A stretch of DNA of 64,000 bases from an uncultured Gemmataceae bacterium (GTDB lineage Bacteria > Planctomycetota > Planctomycetia > Gemmatales > Gemmataceae): NCBI GenBank assembly GCA_963750165.1, contig CAVVPN010000011.1, forward strand, positions 2,208,001 to 2,272,000, read 5' to 3'. Under the pieces are notes generated by a model that saw only the letters and a program-made list of their open reading frames with translations, had not been told where the DNA came from and searched no databases. Positions 42,813 to 63,309 of this stretch are shown piece by piece (the stretch's first letter is position 1; each line of letters starts with the position of its first letter). The position numbers and the translations under genes were made by a program.

Positions 42813-42815
42813 CGC

Positions 42816-44284: not shown

Positions 44285-44319
44285 ACCAACGCGGTGCTTG
44301 TAGACGGCACCGCTGCGGC

Positions 44320-44353: not shown

Positions 44354-44372
44354 CCCTACTCCGTGGAGTCTT

Positions 44373-45041
44373 ATGGAACACCCTGAATTAGCCTGCAACG
44401 GCCTCCGAGCATTTACAACAGCCCGTCTCCTCATCGGCGCCGAGCCGAGCGCGCTGGACACTGTTGGCCTGCACCTGGAAGCGGGCGAGCGCTGGAGACT
44501 CGAAGCCATCCAGGCTCAGCAGCACGTCCTCGCCCAGATTCGCGACGCCGGCACCGCCGCGCGGACCGAGCAAGAGCCGGTGCTGAGCCGGCTGCGCGAC
44601 CAGCTGCAGCGCGGCGAGCAGTCGGTGACCGCCGAAAGGGCCGGTGCGGAGCAGCTGCGGCGTGAAGTCGAACGGCTTGCCGAAGCCGGTGACGCGGCCC
44701 TGGACATTCGCAGCCAGCTGGCAGACGCGACGCGCCGCGCGAACCTGGCCGCGGAGTTCGTCGCCGAGGTCAAGAGGAAGCTGGCCGACGCCGAGCGCGC
44801 CGCGGATCGGGCCGCCGCCGCCGCCAGTAGCATCGCCGCGGCGGCCGTGGCCACAAAGCTGGGCGCTGAGATCGAGGAGGAGAAGGAGGGGTTCCTGATC
44901 GACCTGGCCCATAGCTGGAAGGTGTTTTACACCAAGGAGTCGGCGCGCGCCCTGGCGGCCCAGCGGGTCACCCAGCCGGCGGACTGGCAGGCGGCGCGGG
45001 CGTCGGCCGGCGCGGCGAATGTGGAGGTGCCCCAAGCATGA
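44373..45041 (+). CDS. Coiled-coil hypothetical protein
   Basis: GGAG RBS; Ala/Glu/Arg-rich heptads. Confidence 0.65.
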   Translation: MEHPELACNGLRAFTTARLLIGAEPSALDTVGLHLEAGERWRLEAIQAQQHVLAQIRDAGTAARTEQEPVLSRLRDQLQRGEQSVTAERAGAEQLRREVERLAEAGDAALDIRSQLADATRRANLAAEFVAEVKRKLADAERAADRAAAAASSIAAAAVATKLGAEIEEEKEGFLIDLAHSWKVFYTKESARALAAQRVTQPADWQAARASAGAANVEVPQA

Positions 45042-48000: not shown

Positions 48001-49182
48001 GCCGCTCTTACAGCCGCATCTCGGTGAGGACGGGCGGACGGCGGACCAGCTGGCGCAGGCGGCCGGGTTGCCGCCGGCCCTGGCCGAGCGGTCGCTGCAG
48101 TACCTGGAGAACCACGGGCGGGTGATGCCGGTGCGGGACGAAACGGGTGAGACGTACTACTACGGCAGCACGCCGGGGCAGGGGCAGCCGGCGATGAGCG
48201 AGCTGCAGCGGCGCCTGCTGGGGCTGTTCGAGTCGCCGCGCTACGAGGACGCCATTACCGATGTCCTCGCCGGGCACTCGGCCGAGGAGGCGCAGCGGGC
48301 CTTCCAGGGGCTGCGAGACGCCGGGCTGGTTCAGGAGCTGGACAACGGCACGCACTGGACGAACGGGGCCGGCAGCGCGGCACTGCAGGCGGCGGGGGGC
48401 AAGCCGGCGGTTGCGGCTCAGGGCAGTGGCGGGGAACAACCCGGTGCGGCGGCGGACGGCGGCGCGGGGGCGACTCAGGCGACGGCGCCGGCCTACACCG
48501 GCCACCGCGAATTCATGGCGCGGTGGTCCGACCCAAAGCACCGGGCCACGGCGTCCGCGTCCGCCCAGGATCTGGCCAACCTGAAGACGTTTCTCGGCCG
48601 CGAGCCGCGGCCGCACGAACTGGCGGGCATGACCTGCGCGCGGCGGGGGCGGACGCGAAGGTGGAAGCCTACGGCGGCGCCATGAGTTCCCTGGTCGATC
48701 ACGAGGGGGTGGAGGCATGCCGCGGCTACGGCCGCCACCCGGACGGCAGCCTGGTCTGCCACAACGACATCTTCTACATCCACAAGAATTCGCCGCACAA
48801 GGGTCAGGGCTACCAGTTCACCGCCCGCCAGGTCGCCGCGCTCTGCGCCCTGGGTTTCCATAAAATCATGATGGGGTCGGCGGTCGGCCGCAAGGGAGCG
48901 AATTCGAACGGCTACTATACCTGGCCGCTGTTCGGCTTTGGCGGCAGGATGCATGACTACCAGTACAGCGAGCTCGCCCCGGAGTTCCAGAAGGCCCTGG
49001 GCAAGAGCCGGGAAATCCTCGACCTGTTCGAGTTGCCCGGCGGCCCCGAGGAGTGGAAGGAGAAGGGCAGCGGCCTGAGCAACCTGGAGTTTGATTTATC
49101 GGACGGCAGCCGCAGCATGCGGCGGCTGGAGGCGTACATCCGCGAGCGCGAGTCGCGACCGGCACAAGGAGCAGCCCCATGA
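45038..49182 (+). CDS. Large polyvalent phage protein (repeat domain, glycosylase-like domain, wHTH, GNAT-like); probable frameshift near 48645
   Basis: GWYE...PK..F...VTNDVWM...VQETVW domain; internal duplication; C-terminal KGQG...NGYYTWPLFGF in the next frame. Confidence 0.65.
46728..46952 (+). CDS. Nested +1-frame small acidic protein
   Basis: GAGG RBS; codon bias shifts to this frame over this interval. Confidence 0.5.
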   Translation: MYDDSSPKSPSPEESALFSTLLTDFLQQSERQNSAARYDPSQDPFLAALANLNDASPSASPNECPDTPPASPGV

Positions 49183-49367
49183 GCATCGGCGAACGGATCA
49201 AGGAGTGCAGGCGTTACCAGGACGAGATTCGTCAGCTGCAGGAACAGCTGGAGCAGCGGTTCCGGGAGACCGGGGCGGTGGACGCCGAGCTGCAAGGGCG
49301 ACTGGACGCGCTGACCGGGGAGGCGGCCCAGGCCGGCTGCCTGGAAGAGGGCGATGGCGACGTTTGA
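49179..49367 (+). CDS. Small acidic helical protein
   Basis: AAGGAG RBS; ATGA overlap with the upstream gene. Confidence 0.6.
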   Translation: MSIGERIKECRRYQDEIRQLQEQLEQRFRETGAVDAELQGRLDALTGEAAQAGCLEEGDGDV

Positions 49368-50075
49368 GCAATTCGCCCTTGAACATCGCGCCGGGCCGTG
49401 TTTCACTGCAGCATCACCCGGCGACCGCACCCCATTCCCCGAGGCCAAGATCGTGAACAACATGAACGGCACCCTGAATCAAGGCAGCCCCATTTTCAAG
49501 GCCCTCGAAGCGCCCGAATGCAAGGAGCACTTCGGCCACAAGATCGCGTCGCGCGCGGCGCCAAAGCGCTGGATCGCAACAAGGAAAGCATCACGGACGA
49601 ATACATCGCGTCCTACTTGAGGCGGCACCCCGGCCTGACCGTTGACGATCTGGTGTTGTGTCACGGCGTCACGCACCTCACACCCACGACGCTGTGCCAG
49701 ATATTCTGGCTGGAGCCCAGGACCAAGGCCCTCGCCTTCGGCACCATTCAGGAGCGGCTGCAGCGAGAACTGCAGGACGCCCGCGATGCCTGCCAGGCCG
49801 TTCGCGCGGCGGTGCCCGAGGAGTTCCGCCAGGACGGCGTCAAGCTGGACGAGATGGTCTGCGCCATGGCCGCGCGCATCGACCGCCTGACCCTGCAGCT
49901 GGAGGCCGGCCGGCAACTGGAGTCCCAGGCGGACGCCCCGCAGGTGGCACCCGCGACCGATGGCATGCAGCCCACGCACCAGTTCGTCCGCCGCATCGAG
50001 ACGGTCGAGACCACGACGGTCTACGCCCACGAGGACGCAGCGGACCCCGAGGTGCTCATCGCCGTTCACGCCTGA
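49354..50075 (+). CDS. Hypothetical phage protein (frameshift near 49575)
   Basis: MATFEQF... continues as ...DEYIASYLRRH... in another frame. Confidence 0.5.
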
Positions 50076-50083
50076 GCCGCCCG

Positions 50084-50140
50084 CGGGCCGGGGCGCACCC
50101 AGCGCGGCCCCGGCCCGTTTTCTTTCACTTCTTTTTTTTC
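50084..50140 (+). terminator. Rho-independent terminator
   Basis: CGGGCCGGGG...CCCCGGCCCG followed by a long T-rich tract. Confidence 0.75.
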
Positions 50141-50179
50141 TCCATCCCCCGGAACGCGCGAATCCCGTCTCATGTGGTC

Positions 50180-51385
50180 ATGGCGACCGCGACCGCCGAC
50201 CCCACCCGCAACCTGATCGACCGGCTGGCGGATGCGTCCCAGTGGCACATCATCCGCGGCGTGCCGGTCTTCGACGTGCACGTGCGGTCGGATGGCGGCA
50301 CCGAACCGGTCCGGGTCGGCGCCGACGAACTGGAGCGCATCGTCGCCCGCGCCAGGTTCCGCCGCGAGCACAAGCGGGTGGTCCCGGTCATCCAGATCGG
50401 GCACACCCGGCCGAAGGAGCCGGAGCCGAACCAGCCGGACATCGTGGGGTTCGCCGACCACTGGCGGGAGGGAACGTTCGATGGGAAACCGTGCCTCCTA
50501 GTAGACGAGTTCTACGAGAAGGCCGAGGTGCCCCAGTTGTTCCACCCGGACGGCCGCGCCAAATATCCGTTCCGCTCGGTCGAGTACGACCCGCGGCGGC
50601 ACGAGGTCACCCGACTGGCCGTCCTGAAGCGCGACCCCGAACGCGATCTGGGCCTGGTCTATGGCCGCTGCGGCGGCGTGGTGTTCTACTCTCGGAGCCA
50701 AGACATGCCCCTTGCCGACCCGACGATGCAGCCCCAGGCCAACCCCATGCCGGCCCCCGCGCCGGCCGACGAGCACCCGGTCCTCAAGTACCACCGCAAG
50801 CTCGAGCGCTTCATGAAAAAGTGCTACGAGCGCGACCCGCACGCCTTCGACGACTTCGACGGCGAGGACAAGGATGGAGAGGACAAGGACAAGCCGGCGG
50901 AACTGCCGCCGCCGGACGAGGGTCGCGACAAGGACAAGCCGGGCGAGCCATATCAGCGGGGCACGCTCTCCTTCGAGATGGCCCAGCTCCGCCGCCAGGT
51001 AACCGACCTGGCCCGCGACCGCGACGAGTCGCGGCAGCTGTACGCCCGCAGCGAGGGTATGCGGCGGGTCCAGGAGTTGCAGACCGAGGGCTACGTCTTC
51101 AAGGATCCCGCCAAGAAGGCCGGCGAGTTCGCGGCCCTGGCGACGGACGCCGCCCGCGACGCGCTCGCCGACGACATCCGCGTCCATTACCAGCGCGACG
51201 ACAAGGCGCCGACCGGCGGCAGCTTCCTGAATCTGACGACGCCCCCGGGCAACCCCGGCGGCCGCAGCACCGACCCGGACGCCATCACCGTCCGCGAGCG
51301 CGATGCCGCGATCGCGTACATGCGGAAGCATGAAACCGAGGACTTCGACGCGGCGCTGGCCGAGGTCCGCAAGCAGTCCAAGTGA
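50180..51385 (+). CDS. Mu gpI-like prohead protease/scaffold
   Basis: PVIQIGH...IVGFA...YPFRSVE...LAVL protease-like motifs; acidic linker and helical scaffold tail; sits upstream of the capsid genes. Confidence 0.7.
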   Translation: MATATADPTRNLIDRLADASQWHIIRGVPVFDVHVRSDGGTEPVRVGADELERIVARARFRREHKRVVPVIQIGHTRPKEPEPNQPDIVGFADHWREGTFDGKPCLLVDEFYEKAEVPQLFHPDGRAKYPFRSVEYDPRRHEVTRLAVLKRDPERDLGLVYGRCGGVVFYSRSQDMPLADPTMQPQANPMPAPAPADEHPVLKYHRKLERFMKKCYERDPHAFDDFDGEDKDGEDKDKPAELPPPDEGRDKDKPGEPYQRGTLSFEMAQLRRQVTDLARDRDESRQLYARSEGMRRVQELQTEGYVFKDPAKKAGEFAALATDAARDALADDIRVHYQRDDKAPTGGSFLNLTTPPGNPGGRSTDPDAITVRERDAAIAYMRKHETEDFDAALAEVRKQSK

Positions 51386-51418
51386 ACCGCGGCCGACGAC
51401 ACCCCAGGGGCCTTTAGC

Positions 51419-52096
51419 ATGAGCAACTACGCCGAGTACGTCATCGGCCGCCGCGGCTACGGCAAGCTGACGCAGACCGCGGGCACCGTCATCAGCCGGC
51501 TGATCGAGCCACGCAAGAACGCCTGGACGCGGATTACCGGCGTGCTGACCACGACCGCCGCCACGGCGCACCTGCTGACGCTGCTGCGGCCCCTGGGCCG
51601 CACGACGTTCAGCGCCGTGGCGGCGGCCGGGCAGGCCGTGGTCACGCTCACTGCCGACCCGGGCGCCTACCCCAGCGGCGTGCGGACGGCGGCCGACGCC
51701 ATTACTTCGGGCGACTACGTCGTCTACGAGGCGGCAGACGGCACGCTGGTGCAGGACACCGCTGCGGGTACCTGGAACAGCACGACGGGCGCGTTGACGC
51801 TGAACACCTTCCTGCCGACGGGCGGCGTCCTGGTGGGCGGGCGGTTCTGGTACTTCGGGCTGGCCACGGACACCAACCCCAACGACGCCCAGGCGCACCC
51901 GCGCTGGAACCTCCTGGCCAACACCAGCAATTTCTTCGGCCGCGCCGACGGCATGGGCAGCATCCCGGACAACCCGCTCATGAATCTGGGCAAGGGCGAG
52001 GAGCAGCCGCTGCTGCTGCAGATCGACAACGGCAGCAACGCCAGCACCCTGGAGTCGGTCGGCGTCGAATACGTCAAGAAGGCGGCCGCGGGCTAG
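51419..52096 (+). CDS. Putative virion structural protein
   Basis: Thr/Ala/Gly-rich beta-type composition; position in the head operon. Confidence 0.55.
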   Translation: MSNYAEYVIGRRGYGKLTQTAGTVISRLIEPRKNAWTRITGVLTTTAATAHLLTLLRPLGRTTFSAVAAAGQAVVTLTADPGAYPSGVRTAADAITSGDYVVYEAADGTLVQDTAAGTWNSTTGALTLNTFLPTGGVLVGGRFWYFGLATDTNPNDAQAHPRWNLLANTSNFFGRADGMGSIPDNPLMNLGKGEEQPLLLQIDNGSNASTLESVGVEYVKKAAAG

Positions 52097-52143
52097 GGCC
52101 AGGGCGTCGAGGGCGGGGGCGGCACGGCGAGCGGAGGCGAGAC

Positions 52144-52350
52144 ATGCAGCGGATTCCTGGGCACCTGACCGACAACAGCGCCGGCACCGCCAGCGCCACG
52201 GCGATTGCGGCCCTGAGCGACGGCAGCACCTACGCCAACGACGTGGCCGCGATCCGCAACAACCTGGCGACCATCGCCGCCACGCTGAACAGTCTGATCG
52301 ACCTGACCAAGGCGCTGGCCCGGCGGGTCGGCGAGTTGGAAGGGCAGTAA
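52144..52350 (+). CDS. Small coiled-coil (head-fibre-like) protein
   Basis: GGAGG RBS; IRNNLATIAATLNSLI heptads. Confidence 0.55.
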   Translation: MQRIPGHLTDNSAGTASATAIAALSDGSTYANDVAAIRNNLATIAATLNSLIDLTKALARRVGELEGQ

Positions 52351-52384
52351 CCGCGGCACGCCACAGCAACCCGGGGGATGAATC

Positions 52385-52808
52385 GTGGAAGGCACGTATT
52401 TCAAGCCAAGTGCGGGCGGCCAGGCCGCGGGCACCATCTATCCGGCGCGCTTCGTCAAGCCGGGCAGCGACGAGGGCCTGATCCTCATGGCTGGCTCGGG
52501 CGATTTGCCCAGCGGCATCAGTTTCAATGAGACGCGGCGCTGCCAGCTGGTCGATAACACGGCTTCGCCGGGCATCCTGGCCAACACGGGCGAGCCGCTG
52601 AGTTACTACACCCAGGGCGCCCGCTGTCAGCCTGCAGCTGGGCGGCACCGTGAGCGCTGGCAACCTCCTGAAGCCGAACACGAACGGCGACGGCACCGGC
52701 ATCGCCACCACGGCCGACGGCGACGCCTACGGCGCCCGCGCCCTGCGCAACGGCACCAGCGGGGACATCATCCCCGTGGAAGTCTTGGTCGGCGAACGCG
52801 GCGCGTAG
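52385..52808 (+). CDS. Capsid cement/decoration protein (DUF2190-like); frameshift near 52628
   Basis: TIYPARFVK...GEPL...LGGTVSAGNLL...GARAL..GTSGDIIPV; directly upstream of the major capsid gene. Confidence 0.65.
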
Positions 52809-52879
52809 TCCACACATGGCCCGCCGAGTGCTTCGAGCGCTCGCCAGGAATGCCGCCGCGAGGCGGGGCGGGTCTCCAT

Positions 52880-52951
52880 CCCGGGGAGGAGCCGCGGAGG
52901 CTCGCCAGGCTCATAACCTGGAGGCGGTCGGTTCAACTCCGACCCCCGGCA
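52880..52951 (+). tRNA. tRNA-Met(CAT)-like, degenerate initiator-type
   Basis: CCAGG-CTCATAA-CCTGG anticodon arm; GTCGG-TTCAACT-CCGAC T arm; C1:C72 mismatch; atypical A8 and D loop. Confidence 0.65.
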
Positions 52952-53148
52952 CTGACTCCCCCGGCTGCTTCGGCGGCCGGGCGCGGGGACGCAGGGAGGC
53001 GTCCTTAGCTCACCAAGGGATCGTGCGGCGCGTCCGCGCGGTCAATGAACGGGCCGGCCGGGAGTAGCTACCCGGCGAGACGGCCAAACACGTTGCGACC
53101 CGTTTGGGGGCCGCGCGGACGATCCGCGGTCCCACGAGGTCAACGGCC

Positions 53149-54234
53149 ATGCCGTTCGTCTACACCGGTCAGTTCAACGCCTACGTCCCCAAGGCCACCG
53201 GCCAGGTAGTCGCCTACGCCCGCAACCCGAAAAAGTACAAGCTCAACCGCTACACGCAGCTGGTGCCGGCGCCGGAGGACTTGTTCCTCTACTACCTGAT
53301 CCATCCGGACGACTTCGTCACGCACTACAACCAGACCGCCGCCATCTGGCAGGACGGCCAGTTGCGGCCGATGAAGTCCGGTCAGCGCATCCGCCACGAC
53401 CAGGTGCAGGGCCAGTGCGTCCGCTATGACTACGACTTCCAGATCGGCTGGAAGACGCTCAAGAGCGCGGACTACAACGTGCTCATGGCCAACACCAAGT
53501 CGGCCGAAAACGAGGCCATGATCGCCTGGACCGAGGAGGCCATCGCCCTGATCGAGGATGCGGCCAACTGGAACGGCAACACCGCCGACGCCGCGGACCT
53601 CGACGGCGGCGCCACCTGGGACGCCGGCACGCCGGAGAATCCCGTCATCAAGAAGACGCTGGGGGCGCTGGCCGAGCAGATTAGCCTGGGCACCAATGGC
53701 ATCGTCGGCGACTTCGAGAACCCCGAGGACGTGGGCCTCATCCTGCTCCTGGCCCCGGGCGCCGCCCGCCGCATGGCGGTGACGCCGGAAATCCACGCGA
53801 TTTACAAGGAGTCGCTGTACGCCGACGCCCTGGTGACGCGGCAGAGCGCCAACCCGAACGCCGTCTGGCAACTGCCGGCCCGGCTCTACGGCTTCACCGT
53901 CGTCGTCGAGAACGCGGTGCAGGTGAGCACGTCCCCCGTGGCCGCGGCCACGGCGGCGGCCACGACCGGCAGCCCGGCGCCGCGGTCGTTCCTCAAGAGC
54001 TACACGAGCGCGGCGATCCTCAGCCGTGTCGGCGGCATCGACGGCGAGATCGCCGCGCCCAACTTCTCGACGGTGCAGCGCTATTACACCGGCACCGAAA
54101 TGGCCGTCAAAATTTTCGACGAACCCAAGCACGAGTTGACCGACGGTCACGTGGAGCGCTGCGGCACCACCAAGCTGGCGGCGCCGGCGTCGGGGTTCCT
54201 CATCACCAACATCTTCCGGCCAGGCGTCGGCTAA
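53149..54234 (+). CDS. Putative major capsid protein
   Basis: 361 aa; follows protease and cement genes, precedes the gp36-like adaptor; LYGFTVVV C-terminal pattern. Confidence 0.72.
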   Translation: MPFVYTGQFNAYVPKATGQVVAYARNPKKYKLNRYTQLVPAPEDLFLYYLIHPDDFVTHYNQTAAIWQDGQLRPMKSGQRIRHDQVQGQCVRYDYDFQIGWKTLKSADYNVLMANTKSAENEAMIAWTEEAIALIEDAANWNGNTADAADLDGGATWDAGTPENPVIKKTLGALAEQISLGTNGIVGDFENPEDVGLILLLAPGAARRMAVTPEIHAIYKESLYADALVTRQSANPNAVWQLPARLYGFTVVVENAVQVSTSPVAAATAAATTGSPAPRSFLKSYTSAAILSRVGGIDGEIAAPNFSTVQRYYTGTEMAVKIFDEPKHELTDGHVERCGTTKLAAPASGFLITNIFRPGVG

Positions 54235-54267
54235 CCCGGGCGACGGCTGACACAGAGGGTCCGATTC

Positions 54268-55065
54268 ATGGAAACCGCCGCGCTGATGAAGGGGCACGTC
54301 CACCGGCTGTTGCCGATCCCGGCCGCCGAGGACCAGGGCAAGAGCGCGCGTTTCGGCCGCTACGGCGAGCCGTGCGTGCAGTCGATGGTTCGCAAGGCGC
54401 ACCCGCTGGCCGACGAGGGCAGCTACTTCCTGTGCAACAACGCGCAGACGGCCATCACCGCCGTGGCCGCCACGGCGTTCGCGGCGACGACGCCGCTGCT
54501 CATCGTCACCAACACCGACGTGCCCACCAACCCGAACGCCAAGAGCATCTACCTGGACTTCCTGTCCCTGCTCAACGGCAGCACGGCGTTCTCGAACAGC
54601 ACCAGCAACATCGGCATGTTCTGGGCCAGTTACCTCGACCAGCTGGCCCGCTACTCCTCGGGCGGCAGCAACCTGTCGGCCAACATCGTCAGCCCGAACA
54701 GCGGCGTCGCCAACCCGACCTCGGTGGCCAAGGTCTACCTGGGCAGCCTGACGGCGGCGGCGGCCGGCCCCAACGTCCGCTGCCTGATCGGCCAGCGGCT
54801 GTTCCGCGCCCCGGTCACCGCCACGGCCATGTCGCTGGCGTACCTCGACGACTGGCACTACGAGTTCGGCAGCGTGGAATCCCCGCCGGCGGGCACGCCG
54901 GGCACCTCGGGCACCGTCAACGCCAACGCCCTGCACAGCGTCTTCAAGCACCCGCCCGTGGTGATCGGCCCGGGGCACAGCTTCCTGCTCTACCTGTGGA
55001 TGGCGGCCAACAGCGGCCAGACCGGCGGCACCCTCTTGCCCGATCTGGGCTGGTGGGAGCGCTGA
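54268..55065 (+). CDS. Putative virion structural protein
   Basis: Ser/Thr/Asn-rich ORF; PVVIGPG motif; operon context. Confidence 0.55.
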   Translation: METAALMKGHVHRLLPIPAAEDQGKSARFGRYGEPCVQSMVRKAHPLADEGSYFLCNNAQTAITAVAATAFAATTPLLIVTNTDVPTNPNAKSIYLDFLSLLNGSTAFSNSTSNIGMFWASYLDQLARYSSGGSNLSANIVSPNSGVANPTSVAKVYLGSLTAAAAGPNVRCLIGQRLFRAPVTATAMSLAYLDDWHYEFGSVESPPAGTPGTSGTVNANALHSVFKHPPVVIGPGHSFLLYLWMAANSGQTGGTLLPDLGWWER

Positions 55066-55160
55066 GCGGCGGCCGGACAGTTGGGTTTTGCGAAACCGTG
55101 GCGGATTCCGGCGCCGATCGCGGCCGGAATCCGCCGTAGCAGCCCAGTCAAGGGGCGGCC

Positions 55161-55700
55161 ATGACGCAGACCGTCATCAGCGGAGCCAGCGCCTACTGCA
55201 CGCCGCAGCAGTTCCTGGACCGCTACGACCTGCGGACGGTCGGCCGGCTGCTCTCCGATGACGGTAAGAGCACGCTGAACCAGATGCAACTGCTGGCGAG
55301 TCCGATCCTGGCCTCCTTCCTCATGGAAGCCTCGGGCGAGGTCGAAACGGTGTGCCTGCAGGGAGGGCGGTACACCCCGGCGGACCTGGCCGCGCTGGCG
55401 GGGACCAACCACGGCATGACGCTGGCCGGCCTGGTCGCGGACCTGGCCATGTGGCGGCTGTGGCGGCGGCGGCCCAGCAAGGACGACAAGGCCCCGGCGT
55501 CCGTGGAGGATGCCCGGGATCTGCTCCAGCGGCTGGGCGACGGCGAAGCCATCTTTGGCTTCCAGGAGACGGCCGACGCGGGCGTGCTGCACGCCGGGCG
55601 GCGGCACCAGCGCGACGAGACCTTGCTGCCGCCTCGCTACTATGGCCGCGGTTGGGATAGCGACCGCGGCTATGGCTTTGGCAGTGGCGTGGGCGACTGA
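55161..55700 (+). CDS. Mu gp36/DUF1320-like head-tail adaptor
   Basis: YCT...ASGEVE...GRY...DLAMWRL...DARDLLQRLGDG pattern. Confidence 0.75.
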   Translation: MTQTVISGASAYCTPQQFLDRYDLRTVGRLLSDDGKSTLNQMQLLASPILASFLMEASGEVETVCLQGGRYTPADLAALAGTNHGMTLAGLVADLAMWRLWRRRPSKDDKAPASVEDARDLLQRLGDGEAIFGFQETADAGVLHAGRRHQRDETLLPPRYYGRGWDSDRGYGFGSGVGD

Positions 55701-55711
55701 GGGCCACGACG

Positions 55712-56299
55712 ATGACGCTACAGGTCGGCATCCCCAACCCGCTCTCCACCGGCGCCGTGGCCATCTACGTTGGCACCGGCAAACACAACGCGCCGGCCCT
55801 GCTCGGCACCGGCCGCACGGCGCCCCGCTACCTGATCGAGCGGGCCTGGATTCCCTTCTTCAATGATCTGGGCGGCTCGGCGATGCCCTTTGACGAGCTG
55901 TACGCGGGCACGCGGGCGCTCGTCTCGGTGGACCTCAACTGGCTCGACCTCAAAGTGCTCAAGGTGGCGCAGGCCGTCCCCGGTTCCGTCAGCCAGCAGA
56001 CCGGCTTTCAGGCGCTGCTCGACCAGGGTTCGTTCATGGTCGCCGAGAACCTGGCGTCCCCGCTCTGGCTCAGGTTCCTCAACTACAACAAGCCGGCGTT
56101 TCGGGCGCTCGGCCTCGCCCCTGGCATCCGCTTCCCCTACAGCTGGCTGCTCGGCCCCGACCGCCACGAGCCGGGCACGCAGTCGCTGAATATCAACCTC
56201 ATCTGGCGCTGCCAGCGCGGCTTCGTGCCGGCGCTCGGCGGCTTCCTGTTCGCGGACAACGACATGACCGGACTGCCGCCCTTCCCCGGCCTGAAGTGA
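55712..56299 (+). CDS. Putative tail tube protein
   Basis: LG....P........ND.GG..P.D....G..A.V...L pattern; precedes the chaperone pair. Confidence 0.5.
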   Translation: MTLQVGIPNPLSTGAVAIYVGTGKHNAPALLGTGRTAPRYLIERAWIPFFNDLGGSAMPFDELYAGTRALVSVDLNWLDLKVLKVAQAVPGSVSQQTGFQALLDQGSFMVAENLASPLWLRFLNYNKPAFRALGLAPGIRFPYSWLLGPDRHEPGTQSLNINLIWRCQRGFVPALGGFLFADNDMTGLPPFPGLK

Positions 56300-56306
56300 G
56301 CACCCC

Positions 56307-56708
56307 ATGAGTCAGCGCGGCCCCAACGACGTGTTCGGACCCTACGAGTGCGGCCAGGGCCCGGTCTACGGCGATCCCTTCCGCCTCTACCGCGGCTTCG
56401 TCCACGGTTTAGGCGGCGAGCCGGGCCGTGTCCTGCGCGGCTGCCGGAGCGCCGACGAGACCGAGCGCTTCGAGTGCGTCGAGCGGTTGGTCGCCACGAC
56501 CCGCGAGGTGTTTGGCCTGGTGCCGTTCGACCCGGCGGACGGCTCGGGCGTCCTGGACCGCGAGGCGGTCGAGTTGGCCCGGCAGTTCCTGCTCTGGGTC
56601 GAGGGTGTAAAAAAAAATGGCGTGACGCCGCCGACCTCGCCGCCAATTACGGAGTTGGCGTCCTGCCCGGACCCTTGGGTCACGCCGGACGCTTCGGTCT
56701 GTGGCTGA
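56307..56708 (+). CDS. Tail assembly chaperone (G-like)
   Basis: Follows the tube gene; slippery A9 run near the 3' end. Confidence 0.55.
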   Translation: MSQRGPNDVFGPYECGQGPVYGDPFRLYRGFVHGLGGEPGRVLRGCRSADETERFECVERLVATTREVFGLVPFDPADGSGVLDREAVELARQFLLWVEGVKKNGVTPPTSPPITELASCPDPWVTPDASVCG

Positions 56709-56926
56709 ACCTGCCCCGGCAGCGGGCGCGGCACGCCTGGGCCGGCAAGGAGGCCATCGAGTTGGCGATGGGTCGGGGCAGGGTGCCGCGGCTGTACTTT
56801 GAGGCGGTGTGCGCCACCGAGGCCCAGGCCGAGGAACTGGCCTTCCGGGTCAACACGGCGCGGAAGGAAAAAGAGGCGCTGGCCTCCCTCAAGGGCGGCC
56901 CGGCGGCGTGGCAAGGGGCTTGGTAG
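56609..56926 (+). CDS. -1 frameshift extension (GT-like chaperone)
   Basis: Open -1 frame from A AAA AAA to a stop abutting the next ATG. Confidence 0.55.
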   Translation, partial: KKKWRDAADLAANYGVGVLPGPLGHAGRFGLWLNLPRQRARHAWAGKEAIELAMGRGRVPRLYFEAVCATEAQAEELAFRVNTARKEKEALASLKGGPAAWQGAW

Positions 56927-57859
56927 ATGGCGGCCGACAAGGAAGCGCTGTTGCAGATGGCGGCGGCGCTGGCCGACGAGGCGGCGGGCATGGCCGACGC
57001 CGTGGACCGCACCGCCGGGTTCGGCCAGGTCGAGATGCCGGCAATGGCGGACGAGGCGGGCGGTCTGGCGCCCCTGGACTGGCCGCAGAGTGCAGACGGC
57101 GCCGAAGGCGAGGCCGGGGGTGACGGTCAGGACCCGTTCGCGCCGCCGGACTTCGCGGGACTGGGCGGGGCGCTGGAGCCGGGCGGCATGCCCGCGGCCG
57201 GCGTGGCGCCGGGAGAGGTACCGCAGGTGCCGGCGACGGGGTTGGATGCCGCGGGCGACTTCGCGCCGCCGGTGACTGCGGGCGACGGACCCTTCGAGGT
57301 GCCGCCGTTGCCGGGGGCGGTGCCGGAGTTGCCGCCGCCCGAGTTGCCGCAGAGCGTGCCGGCCACCGTGAACTACTACCCCAACGAACCGCAGGTCGAG
57401 GCGCCGCCGCCGGCGGCCGGGCCGGACCAGGATCCGTTCCGCTTCAGCCAGTGGACCGAGCAGGACGGCGGCATCGTCTTTGAGAATGGCCCCGGTGCGG
57501 CCCCAGAGCGCGGCGGCCCGCAACCCTCGGAGTTGCCCGAGCAGGCGGCCGACGAGCCGGACAAGGCGCCGCTGGGGGGCGTCCTGGGCGATGTCTTCGG
57601 GTTGCTCCAGAGCATCCAGGAGGGGATTCAGGCGCTGGCGGGTGGGGGCAGCCAAGGGAGAGGGGCCAACGGCCTCAACTTGCCCACGGGGCCGCAAGGG
57701 CTGCCCTGGTCTGGGATACCTCCGGCGTCCTTGCCCGAGGCCAGCGAGAGCTACGCCGCGGCGTCGCCGGGGATCTTCGACGCGACCACCACGGCCGGCG
57801 CCGGGGGGCTGGCGGCTACGGTGCCGGCAGCCGGCCAAACGTGCCGACTATCGACGTGA
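56927..57859 (+). CDS. Acidic Pro/Gly-rich low-complexity protein
   Basis: 310-aa ORF in the position where a tape measure gene is expected. Confidence 0.6.
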   Translation: MAADKEALLQMAAALADEAAGMADAVDRTAGFGQVEMPAMADEAGGLAPLDWPQSADGAEGEAGGDGQDPFAPPDFAGLGGALEPGGMPAAGVAPGEVPQVPATGLDAAGDFAPPVTAGDGPFEVPPLPGAVPELPPPELPQSVPATVNYYPNEPQVEAPPPAAGPDQDPFRFSQWTEQDGGIVFENGPGAAPERGGPQPSELPEQAADEPDKAPLGGVLGDVFGLLQSIQEGIQALAGGGSQGRGANGLNLPTGPQGLPWSGIPPASLPEASESYAAASPGIFDATTTAGAGGLAATVPAAGQTCRLST

Positions 57860-57899
57860 CCGAACCTTCCAAGCGGCTGGCTTCGCACGGGTGATACCG

Positions 57900-59693
57900 A
57901 TGGCGACCTGGGCGTTCTACAACGGCGTGTACATGGACCGCGCCCGCTGCCACGTGCAAAGGCAGCAGGTGGTCAGCAACGGCTTCTACGTCCGCACCGA
58001 CGTGACGCTGCGCGTCCGCGGGGTCTACAACCCCGCCTACATCAGCTACTATCTGAACAAGCTGCCCGCGCAGGCGAAGGCGGCGGCATTGGCGGGGCAG
58101 GCGGTCGGCAACCTCGCCGCCGGCCTGGCCGCCAACGCCGCGCCCCCAGGCTTCAACCCCCTCGCCCTGGCGAACGCCGCCGCCGGGCTGGCCCAGGCGG
58201 GCAGTGTGCCGCGGCCGGCCCCGCGCCAGGCGCCGGGCGTGCCCGCCCCGCAGACCGACAATGCCATCCGCTACGTGCTCAGCCAACCGCGCAAGCGCCT
58301 CGTCTTCGGCTGCGGACCCGACATCCTGTACGACATCCCCCGGCCGCCGAACACCACGGACGTGAACAACGGGCCGACGCCCGTGCGTATCGACGTGGTG
58401 GAGGTCGAGGGCTACAAGACCTTCCACATCGACTTCATCATCACCTTCGCTGTTAACGAGGTGGACGCCACCAATCGCGGCCAGCGGCGTACCATCGACA
58501 ACAGGGGGAAGCCGGTCAACGTCACCGTCGCCAATTCGCCCTACCGGGTCAGCCCGCTGCTGCTGCACGAGTGGTCGATGGAGCACGACATCGACCAGGA
58601 CTTCTTCGTCACCCGCACGGTGACGGGTCGCGCCGTCTTTCGCACGGACGTGCTGACGCGCGAGGGGCTCGTCCCCGATCAGCTGCGTTACTGGCTGGGG
58701 CACCCGGTGCCGGAAAGGTTCGCCCGCCAGCGTGTCTGGGTCAAGGCGCTGCCGGACAACCGCACGGTCGAGTACACCATCCTCGACCGCGAGCGGACAA
58801 TCCCGTGGGACCCAAACCAGGCCACCCGCGTCGAGTGCGTGTACACGGAAAGCATCAACCACGAGGGGCTGGAATCGTTTCTGGGGCGGCAGAGTTGGTC
58901 GTACCGGGACCGTCAGGACCGATTGCGCTTTGATACCAGTTGGTCGGGCGGCTTCGCCGCCTCGGGGTTCGTGCTTGGGCTGCAGGCGGCGCCGATGCTC
59001 TGGAATGGAATTCGCAATTTGTTTCCCAATGCAGGACTCCCGGCCATGCCAGGCGCCACCGCGCTGGCCGGTGTGCCGGTGAAGAACTATCATATCGTCG
59101 GCCGCGCCTGGGGCCACCCGGGCAAGGATTTGGGCCTCCTCGCCAACTACGTCCGCCGCTTCGTCGGCACCCGGCTGGTCAACCCGCTGGCACCGCCAGG
59201 CGCCATCCTGCCGCAGCGCTTCCCTGGGTTCAACCCCATCCGGGGCATTATGCTGGGCAGCGAGGTGTACGAGCACCGCGCGGACCTGACCGGCAAGTTC
59301 GTCGAGTTCAGCATGACCATGACCGGCTCGCTACTCCGCTCCCTCGCTGGAGACATCGGCTTCGCGAACGCCCAGCCGGGCGCGTTCGATGAGGCCCCGG
59401 GACGGCCCGGCCCACCGGAGAACCGCCCCATCCTGGCGCACCCCATGCGCGGCGTGTACCTGGGGGCGGCCGTGGCGCGGGCGCTGCGGGACACGGAAAC
59501 GCCCTGGACGCCCCCGACCGACCCGCCGAACGTGCTGGAGGTGAACAACCCGCGGCCGGTGGGTTCCAACAACCGGCTCAACGCCGACCCGCAGCAGATT
59601 TGGAACGGCGATCAGGGGCAGTTCGATCTGGTCAGAAACGATGTCGCGGCGGGGGTCAACAACAACGCGGCCGATGCCGTGCAGGCCCCGTGA
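57900..59693 (+). CDS. Putative tail-associated protein
   Basis: 597-aa ORF with strong codon bias; position in the tail region. Confidence 0.55.
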   Translation: MATWAFYNGVYMDRARCHVQRQQVVSNGFYVRTDVTLRVRGVYNPAYISYYLNKLPAQAKAAALAGQAVGNLAAGLAANAAPPGFNPLALANAAAGLAQAGSVPRPAPRQAPGVPAPQTDNAIRYVLSQPRKRLVFGCGPDILYDIPRPPNTTDVNNGPTPVRIDVVEVEGYKTFHIDFIITFAVNEVDATNRGQRRTIDNRGKPVNVTVANSPYRVSPLLLHEWSMEHDIDQDFFVTRTVTGRAVFRTDVLTREGLVPDQLRYWLGHPVPERFARQRVWVKALPDNRTVEYTILDRERTIPWDPNQATRVECVYTESINHEGLESFLGRQSWSYRDRQDRLRFDTSWSGGFAASGFVLGLQAAPMLWNGIRNLFPNAGLPAMPGATALAGVPVKNYHIVGRAWGHPGKDLGLLANYVRRFVGTRLVNPLAPPGAILPQRFPGFNPIRGIMLGSEVYEHRADLTGKFVEFSMTMTGSLLRSLAGDIGFANAQPGAFDEAPGRPGPPENRPILAHPMRGVYLGAAVARALRDTETPWTPPTDPPNVLEVNNPRPVGSNNRLNADPQQIWNGDQGQFDLVRNDVAAGVNNNAADAVQAP

Positions 59694-59701
59694 GGTGAGT
59701 C

Positions 59702-60238
59702 ATGGCCACGAGTCCCGTTTTGTACAAGCTGCCGGCCAAGACCCCGCGCTTCAACTTCGACTACGGGGTAGGCGGCTACGTCCGCAACCAGCTGGCCAGC
59801 GAGTACCTGTTCAACACGGGCAAGATTGTGGTGCCCGTCATGGGCGATCCGAATTACCCCGCGACGGAGGACACCACGGTATCCGTGCAGGTGTGCAGCC
59901 CCTATGGCTTCAAGGTGGTGTCGTTCCATCTGGGCCGCGTCGGCATCAAGCCGCGGCTGCCGTCGCCGCAGTCCAACGACCCGAACCTGGAGTTCCTGGG
60001 CGGCCGGCTGTGGCTGCCCGCGCCGGTCATCCTCAACGACCTGGTGACCTACGTGTACGAAGCGGCCGGCGTCTACTACTACCGCTGCCTGAAACCCGTC
60101 TGGACCGCCGAGGGGTTCACGCTCGGCGCCTCGACGGTGGACCGCACTCCGGGCGCTGCGAACATGCTGGGCGGCCCCGCCGACGCGAACCGCTTCTTCC
60201 CCATCGACGCCACCGACGTACAGCAGAAGCAGGCATAG
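59702..60238 (+). CDS. Hypothetical phage protein
   Basis: GAGGTG RBS; clean ORF. Confidence 0.65.
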   Translation: MATSPVLYKLPAKTPRFNFDYGVGGYVRNQLASEYLFNTGKIVVPVMGDPNYPATEDTTVSVQVCSPYGFKVVSFHLGRVGIKPRLPSPQSNDPNLEFLGGRLWLPAPVILNDLVTYVYEAAGVYYYRCLKPVWTAEGFTLGASTVDRTPGAANMLGGPADANRFFPIDATDVQQKQA

Positions 60239-60258
60239 GTGGGCATCGCGCCGAAGCC

Positions 60259-60837
60259 TTACTGAGAAGGCCGGGCGAATACCTGGCAGAAATAGATGGT
60301 ATCGCCGTTGCCATCCCCCGGTTGCCCCGGGGCGATGGCGACACCGATGCCGGTTTCGGTCCAGTCGCCGCCGAAGGCAATCGGAATGAGGCCGAACTCC
60401 CAGCGCCGCTTTACCACATGGGCGGCGCTCGGCCGGGCTATGTCGGCCCGGTCGAATGCGACATCGTAGAGCGCCGCCACCTTGCCAGCGTAGCCCGCCT
60501 CCTTGGCCCGCTGCTCTGCCTTCTTACCGTCCGCGGGCAGCCCAAAACCCTTCGCTTTGGCCATCTGATCGGCGTGCAGCTGCGCGATCGCGTCCAGCTT
60601 GGCGATCCGCTTCAGTGGCAACACATCGGGCAGAGGCGGCTCTCCGATTTCCTTGCGAACCTGATTGGCGTTCGGCAGCCGCTCCTTCCGATACCACTCC
60701 CGCGCCTTGTTGTGCAGGGCGAAGAGTTCGTCCCCGAGCTTCTTCAGGTCCAGTGGCTTCTTGTCCTGGGCGGCCGGGCCGGTGCCGGGCAACACCGCCG
60801 CCAGCACCGCCACCGCCGTCAACGTCATTACGCGCAT
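60259..60837 (-). CDS. Secreted CAP/SCP domain protein (cargo gene)
   Basis: Signal peptide; LHNKAR, LDAIAQLHADQMA, TETGIG, YFCQVFA. Confidence 0.82.
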   Translation of the reverse strand: MRVMTLTAVAVLAAVLPGTGPAAQDKKPLDLKKLGDELFALHNKAREWYRKERLPNANQVRKEIGEPPLPDVLPLKRIAKLDAIAQLHADQMAKAKGFGLPADGKKAEQRAKEAGYAGKVAALYDVAFDRADIARPSAAHVVKRRWEFGLIPIAFGGDWTETGIGVAIAPGQPGDGNGDTIYFCQVFARPSQ

Positions 60838-60889
60838 GGGTGACCCTCCTTTCCTGCCATTAGAACGGCAAGCCGGGGGCTTGTCAACT

Positions 60890-61144
60890 TCACGCTTTTC
60901 GCGGCCGGCCGCGCTTCGCCGGGGCGGCAGCCGGCGATGGGGCCTTCGTGAACGCCAGGACCGTCACCCCCAGCGCCCGCGCCAGCGCCAGCGCGCTCGA
61001 CCAGCTAGGATCGGTCAGGTTCTGTTCGTAGTGCGAGACGGCACGCTGGCTGATGCCGGCCTTCTCCGCCAGTTCCTTCTGCGTCAGGCCGGCTCTCTCG
61101 CGCAATTCCTTGAGCCGTCCGCTGAAAATCTCCGCATCGGTCAC
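60890..61144 (-). CDS. XRE-family HTH repressor
   Basis: RLKELRERAGLTQKELAEKAGISQRAVSHYE; C-terminal KRGRPRK. Confidence 0.88.
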   Translation of the reverse strand: MTDAEIFSGRLKELRERAGLTQKELAEKAGISQRAVSHYEQNLTDPSWSSALALARALGVTVLAFTKAPSPAAAPAKRGRPRKA

Positions 61145-61163
61145 CGGAACACCCCCGCCAGAA

Positions 61164-61208
61164 AATACCAAAATTTGGCTTGACGCCATAGCCAGACTTT
61201 GGTATTAT
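61164..61208 (+). promoter_or_regulatory. Early promoter overlapped by inverted operator pair
   Basis: TTGACG(61180)-N17-TATTAT; 17-bp inverted repeats 61164-61180 and 61190-61206 (15/17 match). Confidence 0.7.
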
Positions 61209-61295
61209 ACCTTCGTCGCCTGGAAAAACAAGTTGGGCCGGCGAGTGCTACTAACACCCCCGGCCCGTGGCAAACCCCGAGTGACCGAGGTTCAC

Positions 61296-61652
61296 ATGAA
61301 CAGCGTAGCATCCCCCGTCCGTGCCGAGAAGGCCAACACGTCCGCCCGCACCGTCCGCCTGAGCACCAGCGCTCACGGCCACAAGCTCCTGACCATCACG
61401 GAGCGCAAGGGCCGCCAGACGCTCACCACCGCGTACCACCTGGAGCAGATCGACGCCGGCATGGGCCGCCGCGGCTTCCGTCTCTCCAAGGTCGAGCGCT
61501 CCAGCGGCACCGACAAGTCCCCCGAGGCCGACGCCTATCACGTCCTGACCGCACCCGAGGGAACCGCCTGCGAGTGCCGCGGGTTCCTTCGTCACGGGCA
61601 CTGCAAGCACTGCGAGAGTCTGGTTGCCCTGGAGCGGGCCGGCAAGCTCTAG
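61296..61652 (+). CDS. SWIM zinc-finger protein
   Basis: YHV...CECRGF....CKH; GAGG RBS. Confidence 0.78.
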   Translation: MNSVASPVRAEKANTSARTVRLSTSAHGHKLLTITERKGRQTLTTAYHLEQIDAGMGRRGFRLSKVERSSGTDKSPEADAYHVLTAPEGTACECRGFLRHGHCKHCESLVALERAGKL

Positions 61653-61742
61653 AGCCATCTGGTTGATGGGGTGCCGCGGGCCAGGGGCGTGTGCCCCGCC
61701 GCGGCGCCTTTTTCCTCGCCCCCGAACACGGAGAACATCCCG

Positions 61743-61967
61743 ATGACTATCGATACCACGACCACCCGCGGCCTACTGCTGCCCTGCCCCCTGTGCGGGG
61801 AGGCCGAGGCGCAGGTGCTGCTCGACCTGTCGGACATGGACACCTGCCACTGCGACAGCTGCGACACCGACTTCTCGCTGACCGACCTGGCCGGCCGGAT
61901 CGCCAAGTGGCATCGCCTGCTCACCTGGGTCGAGGCCGCCCCGGGCGCGGAAGGCGGTGCGTCTTGA
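61743..61967 (+). CDS. Zinc-ribbon protein
   Basis: CPLC...CDSC; GGAG RBS. Confidence 0.7.
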   Translation: MTIDTTTTRGLLLPCPLCGEAEAQVLLDLSDMDTCHCDSCDTDFSLTDLAGRIAKWHRLLTWVEAAPGAEGGAS

Positions 61968-62043
61968 AACCCACCTGGCGGATGTTAGAATCCACCTTGA
62001 AAATTCCAGGCCCCGAAACCTCTTGTTTCGAGGAGACGGTTCG

Positions 62044-62418
62044 ATGCTCACCGCGCGCCGCGTGCCCGTCAACCGCGTTCAGGCACTGCTGAAACTGGCC
62101 CGCCAGGTCCTCGACGAACAACACGGCCCCGACCCCGGCCCGGTCAGCGTCGTTATCGTCCGGGGCCAACTGGTCACCGTCAGCAGCGACCAGGCCGCCG
62201 AACAAGCCGTCATCGCCGCGGCACCGACGGCCGCGAACGTCGGCCCGCTACAGCGGCGCATCCTGCAGGCCCTGACAGCTTCCCCGCAGACCGCGCGACG
62301 GCTGGCCAGTTCGGTGAGGCACCGTTGCAATAGCTACTTTTACGAGCAGCTGCGACTGCTTGTGGACGCCGACCCACAACTGATCCGCCGCGTGTCCTGG
62401 GGCTACCGGCTGCCGTGA
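62044..62418 (+). CDS. Winged-helix-like protein
   Basis: ILQALTASPQTARRLA...LRLLV...GYRL; GAGGAG RBS. Confidence 0.6.
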   Translation: MLTARRVPVNRVQALLKLARQVLDEQHGPDPGPVSVVIVRGQLVTVSSDQAAEQAVIAAAPTAANVGPLQRRILQALTASPQTARRLASSVRHRCNSYFYEQLRLLVDADPQLIRRVSWGYRLP

Positions 62419-62455
62419 AGGTGGCAGGCAGCATGGAAACGGCCCTTCCGCCCAG

Positions 62456-62490
62456 AAAGAAAGGCCCCGGCCGTTCACTGGTCGGGGCCT
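62456..62490 (-). terminator. Terminator facing the incoming tRNA-array transcript
   Basis: Minus strand AGGCCCCGACC...GGCCGGGGCCT-TTCTTT. Confidence 0.65.
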
Positions 62491-62509
62491 GATGCGAGAC
62501 TTGTGAAAT

Positions 62510-62552
62510 ATTGGAGAAAGTGCCTTCTCCTGCTCCCAGGAGCGTCGCTTCT
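62510..62552. repeat. Right att junction: arm ATTGGAGAAAGTGC, core CTCCCAGGAGC and the tRNA-Trp 5' end
   Basis: See the left junction; 62546-62552 encodes the 5' acceptor strand AGAAGCG. Confidence 0.9.
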
Positions 62553-62561
62553 GTTCGTCAG

Positions 62562-62635
62562 GGTGTCCGGGGGGAATTGAACCCACCACCGCGACATTCA
62601 CAGTGTCGCATGCCGGCCATTACAACACGAACACC
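62562..62635 (-). tRNA. tRNA-His(GTG)
   Basis: CGACA-CTGTGAA-TGTCG; G-1 and C73. Confidence 0.85.
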
Positions 62636-62645
62636 ATCAATCCAG

Positions 62646-62715
62646 TTGCAGGCTCCGGTAACGATCCGGACGAGCCGGCCTTATGAGAGCCAGCCGGACG
62701 CCTGTCACGCCTGCA
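62646..62715 (-). tRNA. tRNA-Met(CAT)-like, atypical
   Basis: Acceptor TGCAGGC/GCCTGCA; loop CTCATAA; short D arm; T loop ATCGTTA. Confidence 0.6.
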
Positions 62716-62722
62716 CCAGCAG

Positions 62723-62801
62723 AATCAGCAGGAGGAGTCGAACCTCTTGGCAGTAGTTTTGCAGACCACCGGGGCACCATGTCCCTTCAGCCACTGCTGA
62801 C
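62723..62801 (-). tRNA. tRNA-Cys(GCA), atypical D arm
   Basis: Loop CTGCAAA; GGTTCGACTCC; enlarged D region. Confidence 0.7.
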
Positions 62802-62808
62802 GTTCCAG

Positions 62809-62892
62809 CGGAAAGGGAGGGAGTCGAACCCTCAAGGCTCATCGCTCAACCGTTTTCGGGACGGTCGCCATCGCCGATTGGCTTGCCTTTCC
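62809..62892 (-). tRNA. tRNA-Ser(CGA)
   Basis: Acceptor GGAAAGG/CCTTTCC; loop CCCGAAA; long variable arm; G73. Confidence 0.85.
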
Positions 62893-62903
62893 GTTTCACC
62901 CAG

Positions 62904-62975
62904 TTGGGGAGGTGGGAATCGAACCCACTTGCTCCAGCTCCCAAGGCTGGCGGACCGCCATTGTCCCACACCCCA
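62904..62975 (-). tRNA. tRNA-Pro(TGG)
   Basis: CCAGC-CTTGGGA-GCTGG; GGTTCGATTCC. Confidence 0.8.
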
Positions 62976-62992
62976 ATGTCACGCGCACGCAG

Positions 62993-63064
62993 TAGGGGCA
63001 GTTGGAATCGAACCAACACCTTCCTGTTTAAGAGACAGGTATGCCGCCGCTACACCATACCCCC
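62993..63064 (-). tRNA. tRNA-Lys(CTT)
   Basis: CCTGT-CTCTTAA-ACAGG; GGTTCGATTCC. Confidence 0.88.
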
Positions 63065-63088
63065 AGATCAATCGAACCGCCATCAACG

Positions 63089-63120
63089 AAAAAAGGCCGG
63101 GTGTCTGGTGACACCCGGCC
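63089..63120 (-). terminator. Attenuator terminator upstream of the tRNA array
   Basis: GGCCGGGTGT-CACCAG-ACACCCGGCC-TTTTTT, ending about 25 nt before the first tRNA. Confidence 0.85.
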
Positions 63121-63150
63121 CACACGCTGCTCGCGTGGAGTCCCGCAATG

Positions 63151-63240
63151 TCACAACCGTAAGTTGCACCGGCACGGCGCCATCGACGTGGGTTTATGCC
63201 ACGAATGGGGCTGCATCAAGTTAGTCCGTGCGGTCAACAT
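63151..63240 (-). CDS. Putative leader peptide MLTARTNLMQPHSWHKPTSMAPCRCNLRL
   Basis: GAGGA RBS; 29 codons; stop codon lies inside a predicted antiterminator stem. Confidence 0.7.
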   Translation of the reverse strand: MLTARTNLMQPHSWHKPTSMAPCRCNLRL

Positions 63241-63282
63241 GGGTTCCTCAATTCGTCTCAGGATTAGCGTCTCACGTAGTAG

Positions 63283-63309
63283 TAGACGCGGCCACCCGGG
63301 AACTGGTTC
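63283..63309 (-). promoter_or_regulatory. ECF-sigma-like promoter
   Basis: GAACC-N16-CGTCTA upstream of the leader ORF. Confidence 0.5.

Follow-up and report, generated by a model that had tools for sequence, protein, structure and literature searches.

Leader peptides ahead of planctomycete tRNA arrays are spelled mostly in codons their own arrays serve and probably act as transcription attenuators

In the attenuators of the trp, his, phe, thr and ilv operons, the codons of a short leader peptide report the supply of the matching aminoacyl-tRNAs, those of thr and ilv being multivalent. Leaders of the trp/his type carry runs of one to three amino acids and a protector hairpin, and have biosynthetic genes or a synthetase downstream; because of the protector (1:2) hairpin, such a leader terminates when it is not translated. 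The T-box riboswitch is a termination/antitermination switch that binds one uncharged tRNA directly, with no upstream open reading frame (uORF). In the whiB7 (wblC) leader of Actinobacteria, as described in the accessible part of the source, full translation leads to termination and poor translation to read-through (PMC10274678). Of the long 'cryptic' tRNA arrays found in bacteria and phages, one is a worked case as to purpose and timing of expression. This is the trn operon (an L-array) of Anabaena, where the accessible parts of two papers describe initiation regulated by the TrcR repressor and a role in translational stress; these papers also report L-arrays in Planctomycetes, with HNH genes within or near arrays (PMC8421152; PMC10272220). 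An L-array is expected to stay silent until translational stress induces it (PMC8421152). The terms 'attenuat', 'leader' and 'uORF' are absent from their main texts as accessible, and a search of the open literature, with subscription literature largely outside it, found no leader-peptide attenuation of tRNA genes.

The window analysed here, 64,000 nt of a Gemmataceae genome, holds on its minus strand a leader and an array of nine tRNA genes (K P S C M H W T R; Table 1), now split in two. Every one of the nine anticodons has another copy elsewhere in the genome, which makes the array supernumerary. The array shares this property, and its deviant tRNAs, with Anabaena trn as the accessible part of PMC8421152 presents it, and it has the further marks of an L-array in being non-periodic, in having nine different anticodons and in its patchy occurrence (the terminator motif is present in 46 of 252 family genomes).

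Table 1. Features of the leader, the tRNA array and the inserted element, in window coordinates
Feature	Position	Strand	Basis
ECF-type promoter-like element GAAC-N17-CGTC	63285..63309	-	sequence reading
Shine-Dalgarno GAGGA	63245..63249	-	sequence reading
Leader uORF, 29 codons, ATG 63240 to TGA	63151..63240	-	enrichment of K P S C M H W T R codons in the core
Antiterminator 5' strand (predicted), TGA stop inside	63142..63154	-	predicted fold and covariation
Intrinsic terminator, 11-12 bp stem, 4-nt loop, T6	63089..63121	-	stem 63120-63095
tRNA-Lys(CTT)	62992..63064	-	ARAGORN; Rfam
tRNA-Pro(TGG)	62903..62975	-	ARAGORN; Rfam
tRNA-Ser(CGA)	62808..62892	-	ARAGORN; Rfam
tRNA-Cys(GCA), deviant	62722..62801	-	ARAGORN; weak in Rfam
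tRNA-Met(CAT), deviant, flagged possible pseudogene	62645..62721	-	ARAGORN at relaxed score only
tRNA-His(GTG)	62561..62634	-	ARAGORN; Rfam
att core, left junction, inside 5' part of tRNA-Trp	62533..62543	-	11-bp direct repeat
Inserted prophage-like element, 24,150 bp	38394..62543	.	att repeats and protein matches
Second GAAC-N17-CGTC element, supplied by insert	38413..38437	-	motif match; function inferred
att core, right junction	38383..38393	-	11-bp direct repeat
Hybrid tRNA-Trp(CCA)	38331..38403	-	ARAGORN
tRNA-Thr(CGT)	38252..38327	-	ARAGORN
tRNA-Arg(CCG)	38175..38247	-	ARAGORN

An initial annotation, made from the sequence alone, had placed a promoter, a ribosome-binding site and a 29-codon ORF at this locus, and all three are in the sequence where it had put them. 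The promoter motif is one that we take to be ECF-like; a sigma-70 promoter scan gave no match. The annotation was right about the T6 tract and the terminator stem but not about the stem's length, given as 10 bp, since we count 11 Watson-Crick pairs, or 12 with one G-U. Its residue and codon tallies hold on recount: 20 of the 29 residues, and 14 of the 15 over residues 11-25, are amino acids of the nine array tRNAs; there are three CGG (Arg) and two TCG (Ser) codons; and five served residues use non-cognate codons (ACC, ACT, CCC, CCC and AAA). In the ortholog that precedes K(ctt) P(tgg) S(cga) (L292), the Lys codon is AAG, which is cognate. Taken singly, the window leader is only modestly beyond chance, with 17 of 23 core residues (the peptide minus Met1 and its last five residues) matching its own array against 0.42 expected (binomial p 0.002) and all eight non-Met types present (p about 0.03); the strength of the case comes from its relatives. 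The proposed pairing of the stop-containing segment with the 5' arm of the terminator reappears as the predicted fold of the partial transcript, in which the antiterminator helix GTGACATT/CGG has -24.4 kcal/mol. Four sequencing runs (of 10, all with shares of 0.06 or less) had no reads over 63063-63266; such cover as they gave came from a repeat, from the yjbQ-like gene and from tRNAs of other organisms. A 134-bp near-palindromic, MITE/REP-like repeat (63345-63478), with several further genomic copies at ~93% identity, lies between the promoter and the yjbQ-like gene.

Relatives were collected with a terminator-only pattern designed from six examples, which yielded the 46 of 252 family genomes mentioned above (the reversed control gave one match) and at least 119 GTDB loci. 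GTDB and metagenome scans gave at least 125 distinct tRNA-linked matches, counted after removal of 31 GTDB and 17 metagenome duplicates. Where a record is named and has tRNAs behind the motif, its label is in most cases Gemmataceae, Gemmatales or Planctomycetota, so the lineage of the leader is presumably planctomycete. Among the matches listed, a leader ORF, its start codon chosen by a fixed rule, was present in 116 of 125 tRNA-linked hits (three of the other nine are cut by the contig start and six have no start or stop in range), with a length of 32-33 aa in 69 of the 116. In the same set of listed matches, 99 of 109 leaders have GAAC-N16/17-CGTC no more than 150 nt from the ATG, versus 1.1 expected from shuffles, and an RBS-like word occurs in 67 of 116, a plain count without a null. 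TGA-Y stands 28-40 nt upstream of the terminator in 56/56 tRNA-linked versus 12/95 non-tRNA hits among the matches listed, these counts coming from terminator-only searches, where stop placement was not demanded.

A relaxed class-wide pattern proved unspecific (267 of 301 genomes, with many control matches), and a search by tRNA similarity was used instead. Of the class-wide arrays found in this way, 16 of 19 visible array heads carry the leader as judged by eye, 14 of them in five other families; two of the remaining three have the promoter only and one is unclear. Twenty closer regions comprise seven with a leader, one in which the stop is lost, four with none and eight that are cut or unclear. 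Two of these seven leaders use another stop codon and terminator and still match their arrays (L328, 42/49 versus 0.39; L338, 11/18 versus 0.15). Arrays L329, L331, L332, L334, L383 and L386 have the promoter but no leader. Conservation in related arrays, on which the first reading of the locus hung, is borne out for the uORF and the antiterminator, and stop position and terminator are kept as well. In one locus (L325, G006:C111) the leader stop before a 22-tRNA array is now a Cys codon and the terminator stem is damaged, possibly representing a decayed or constitutive switch.

Leader codons could be compared with array content for 57 of the 116 leaders, the other 59 having an array cut by the locus or contig end, or one tRNA. 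In these 57 complete arrays (among the matches listed) the own-array match of core residues was 0.70, compared with 0.545 +/- 0.014 after permutation (z 11.4, 0/20,000), and frames +1 and +2 of the same leaders gave null results (z 1.2 and 0.4). With one leader per cluster (19 clusters) the amino-acid match retained a z of 6.3-7.3. Nineteen of the 20 amino acids are commoner in the leader when the array has that tRNA, Met being the exception. The excess match spans codons -5 to -32; over the final four codons it is down to 0.05-0.12. For example, an array of S,S,R,H,R,C (L195) stands behind the leader MLHRLHSRSSSSRHHCRASRSHCICS, and the leader of an N,Q,Q,K,F,G,P,R,N array (L393) matches at 37/41 positions. 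Poor fits were seen for six small arrays (L150 7/35, L154 8/26, L165 4/26, L225 4/22, L260 8/27 and L277 2/27), and within-genome swaps favoured the other array for L154, L167 and L182; undetected or separated tRNAs may lie behind both.

A match of this kind could be an artefact of ancestry, nucleotide composition or example selection, as a single similarity cluster takes in 35 of the 57 leaders, the pattern came from six examples and the starts were chosen by rule; or it could reflect T-box-like direct RNA-tRNA pairing without translation. Because kin leaders are not independent, we permuted the amino-acid labels and left ancestry intact. The mean diagonal r was 0.44 (z 9.5, 0/100,000), 15 of 20 amino acids correlated best with their own tRNA, and the other frames were again null. 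An independent set of 18 leaders, whose arrays were fetched by tRNA similarity without the terminator pattern (an automated pick that left out L328, L338, L391, L393 and one duplicate), matched at 0.81 versus 0.72 (z 4.3). As for direct pairing, a T-box would share with the window leader the reading of tRNA state by a termination switch, but the window leader has a uORF instead, and an Rfam search of the window returned no T-box and no known leader family at E up to 5. Both forms of this explanation are largely refuted, and we regard them as almost certainly wrong.

The match extends from amino acids to codons. Given a served amino acid, 788 of 977 codons fit the array anticodons when wobble is allowed, against 721 with shuffled synonyms (z 7.3), and 490 against 435 fit by strict Watson-Crick pairing (z 5.7); with one leader per cluster z was 3.2-4.8. 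The covariation of uORF codons with array anticodons that the initial annotation had supposed is therefore found beyond permuted nulls at both levels. Isoacceptor-level matching, together with peptides composed entirely anew for small arrays (S/H/R/C, N/Q, F/G/N/P/Q/R), argues for selection on the codons themselves. Core codons for His, Tyr, Asp and Asn, whose tRNAs are the four queuosine tRNAs, are U-ending in shares of 0.76, 0.80, 0.75 and 0.61, versus 0.48, 0.38, 0.57 and 0.38 off-frame; the share for these amino acids in long genomic ORFs is 0.12-0.18, on a background of 66% GC. This U-ending preference might make the leaders sensitive to queuosine loss. The last four leader residues are mostly P-L-R-L/W/C, with Pro codons used evenly (23/22/21/14), and the C-terminal P-L-R-(L/W/C)-stop hints at a candidate nascent-peptide pause at termination.

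The RNA shows covariation of its own. The base four past the T of the stop pairs with a variable base of the terminator 5' arm, and among the matches listed this switch pair is A:U in 55 leaders, G:C in 50 and other in 5, i.e. complementary in 105 of 110 informative leaders. Seven clusters contain exclusively A:U pairs and seven exclusively G:C pairs; at the switch position of 34 leaders, the terminator pair is a wobble and the antiterminator pair is still Watson-Crick. In folds of partial transcripts, which stop short of the 3' arm, the median antiterminator P is 1.0 if the ribosome is at least five codons upstream, and in unmasked partial transcripts with no ribosome its P exceeds 0.5 in 89% of 115. 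For full-length transcripts, on the other hand, the terminator is the equilibrium winner whatever the mask state (median P 0.99-1.0), and therefore read-through would have to be kinetic, by trapping. The window leader is predicted to fold into the antiterminator on the partial transcript and into the terminator on the full one (-37.3 versus -26.0 kcal/mol for the antiterminator). The two structures, which overlap the uORF end, are mutually exclusive in these predicted folds. With an assumed footprint, the antiterminator strand of the window leader would be free for stalls up to codon 25-27; since it stays free only up to that point, the drop of the match in the last four codons fits a ribosome footprint.

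The trp/his-type geometry that had been ascribed to the locus is not borne out. Because the antiterminator also forms without a ribosome on the partial transcript, there is no protector hairpin, and an untranslated leader would keep its antiterminator. The control-codon run of that type is absent too, the codons of nine amino acids being dispersed. A better fit in silico is the whiB7 geometry, with read-through by default if the uORF end is not reached. According to the accessible part of the whiB7 source, the uORF, antiterminator and intrinsic terminator are common to both systems and uORF composition sets what is sensed, but the whiB7 uORF is enriched in one amino acid (Ala) and controls a transcription factor (PMC10274678). 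The leaders described here are not members of the whiB7 family, lying upstream of tRNA genes in Planctomycetota and not of whiB7; their output is tRNA genes, and their uORFs use up to about 19 amino acids and are rewritten per array. Since each uORF lists the amino acids of the downstream tRNAs, the output can cancel the input.

We consider it likely that the planctomycete tRNA-array leader is a ribosome-mediated transcription attenuator that turns its array on when the array's own codons are decoded slowly. This reading builds on the anatomy, conservation, switch-pair covariation and codon-anticodon matching demonstrated here by sequence comparison. A ribosome keeping pace would reach the stop and mask the antiterminator strand, so that the terminator folds and a fully translated uORF ends in termination at the T-run, upstream of all the tRNAs. 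If the ribosome were instead held at any codon up to about 25-27, or were missing, the strand would remain free and would pair with the terminator 5' arm while the 3' arm was still inside RNA polymerase, so that transcription would continue into the array. Stalling would in turn be relieved by the tRNAs so produced, making the circuit a closed negative-feedback loop; such a loop would explain why the leaders are spelled in codons that their own array serves and avoid others. The codon-sensing attenuation of a backup tRNA operon that was first suggested for this locus is thus supported in silico by conserved switch parts and by leader/array covariation.

The likeliest trigger would be a functional shortage of tRNA through cleavage, modification loss or poor charging, because extra tRNA is no cure for starvation and because matching reaches the isoacceptor level; ribosome-targeting antibiotics would also be expected to induce. 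That tRNA damage is the main natural signal is a tentative reading, slightly short of evens, as starvation or antibiotics would also stall the ribosome. In its fullest version, which we hold with just under even confidence, the proposal is of a self-cancelling tRNA homeostat: the leader would list its own anticodons and be rewritten as arrays split, gain or lose genes, would favour fragile U-ending wobble codons (His, Tyr, Asp, Asn), would switch on when those tRNAs are cleaved or under-modified, would serve in defence against anticodon nucleases, and would be bypassed by integrated prophages using their own promoter.

Starvation could also be what the leader reads, in the manner of thr and ilv, as a multivalent sensor of the charging of nine amino acids. 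The same codons would stall under starvation, but more tRNA is, as general knowledge has it, no remedy for a lack of amino acids, single-codon runs are missing, the downstream genes are tRNAs and not biosynthetic enzymes, and specific isoacceptors and U-ending codons are preferred. We judge this explanation very unlikely, even though uORF composition sets the starvation response of whiB7 in the accessible part of that study (PMC10274678). A general translation-stress attenuator of the whiB7 type would respond to any stall, chiefly by antibiotics, with codon matching secondary and serving to let the induced tRNAs switch the array off; tRNA shortage would not be its usual trigger. Without a protector hairpin any failure to reach the stop would give read-through, P-L-R-L/W/C with its free synonymous choice could be a peptide-level pausing motif, and ribosome-targeting antibiotics induce the Anabaena trn array according to the accessible part of PMC10272220. 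Overlapping with our preferred explanation and differing in the dominant signal, it is nonetheless improbable given the isoacceptor-level matching and the peptides wholly rewritten for small arrays.

Under the preferred reading, attenuation by slow decoding of the array's own codons, what is new is a putative chromosomal, class-wide attenuator with leaders demonstrably retuned to each array's content. tRNA genes are an attenuation target not reported in the open literature searched, and attenuation would extend from biosynthetic and resistance genes to tRNA genes, with a closed feedback logic that we infer. The leaders would amount to a built-in, class-wide record of the inducing signal, namely the decoding of codons that the array can rescue, and would make L-array function testable with simple reporters. 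Matching can be tested in this system because the arrays are partial, and the covariation is rare direct evolutionary evidence of uORF codon content tuned gene by gene to a regulon; it also offers a natural design for multi-codon translation sensors.

Two further arrays in the same genome are preceded by leaders of the same build, whose peptides differ from array to array. On contig C10, MRYSVISLVLEQQALQAVAAYQRKLLALDRLNL and a near-identical terminator precede 18 tRNAs (I K Q L D Y E M V A S R); on C4, tRNA-Asn and tRNA-Gln lie behind the N/Q-rich peptide MFGNQNQPLMNPERW. The core of the window leader matches its own array at 17/23 and the other two at 12/23 and 2/23, and the C10 core its own at 27/27 and the others at 5/27 and 4/27; the C4 core matches its own array at 4/9, tied with C10, and the window array at 2/9. 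On C3, a fourth group of tRNAs (R G S G) carries the promoter motif and lacks the leader. The Asn/Gln leader (C4 499380-499700, minus strand) starts M-F-G ahead of its N/Q run; the order Phe, Gly, Asn is seen in other arrays, and Phe and Gly tRNA genes at C4 were perhaps lost later than their codons.

In the window itself the array is interrupted. The initial annotation listed the nine tRNAs as one run; their membership stands, since in-silico removal of the 24,150-bp insert gives nine contiguous tRNAs with tRNA-Trp intact, but their contiguity does not, as a prophage sits in tRNA-Trp. Of the nine, just six (K P S C M H, 62561-63064) still follow the leader, and W, T and R lie ~24 kb off at 38175-38403: the prophage has severed W/T/R from the leader in this genome. 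After integration, the acceptor stem of the hybrid tRNA-Trp contains G-U pairs and one A-C mismatch. Proteins encoded by the insert include a serine recombinase (38278-39333 frame, plus strand), a D5-like primase, a Mu gp36-like protein and an HTH regulator. Its GAAC-N17-CGTC element (38437-38413) sits ten bases before the hybrid tRNA-Trp, and because the insert supplies this motif there, W/T/R have presumably been re-promoted without the attenuator. Just inside the left junction (~62462-62490, minus strand) is a GC hairpin with a weak T-rich tail, not called terminator-like by a terminator scan. The layout of the insert is as if the distal tRNAs were re-promoted and the proximal transcript closed. 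Inverted repeats flank its 11-bp att core, it carries its own tRNA-Met (52880-52952), and 14 of 18 insert proteins tested were blank or weak in Pfam. In L375, L376 and L390 an HNH-like ORF, recognised by eye, interrupts the array before the W/T/R block, the same block that the prophage strands in the window.

The GAAC/CGTC motif also occurs away from the leaders, with 34 intergenic matches in the genome, including ones before archease-rtcB (C3 1267600-1269500), EF-G (C4 44900-47200), GluRS-GlnRS (C4 991900-995900), IF3 and an HNH gene. A stress regulon shared with archease-rtcB was not upheld, as the strict motif stands before archease in one of 29 genomes, namely the window's own, and across the genome it is not over-represented relative to other spacings (167 versus 68-173). 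Looser look-alikes of the motif are visible before archease in relatives. Unusual anticodons were also seen: C12 of the window's genome carries tRNA-Ile(TAT), several arrays carry Ile(TAT) or Ala(AGC), and in L392 (G110:C1) ARAGORN called a tRNA with anticodon CTA within the array.
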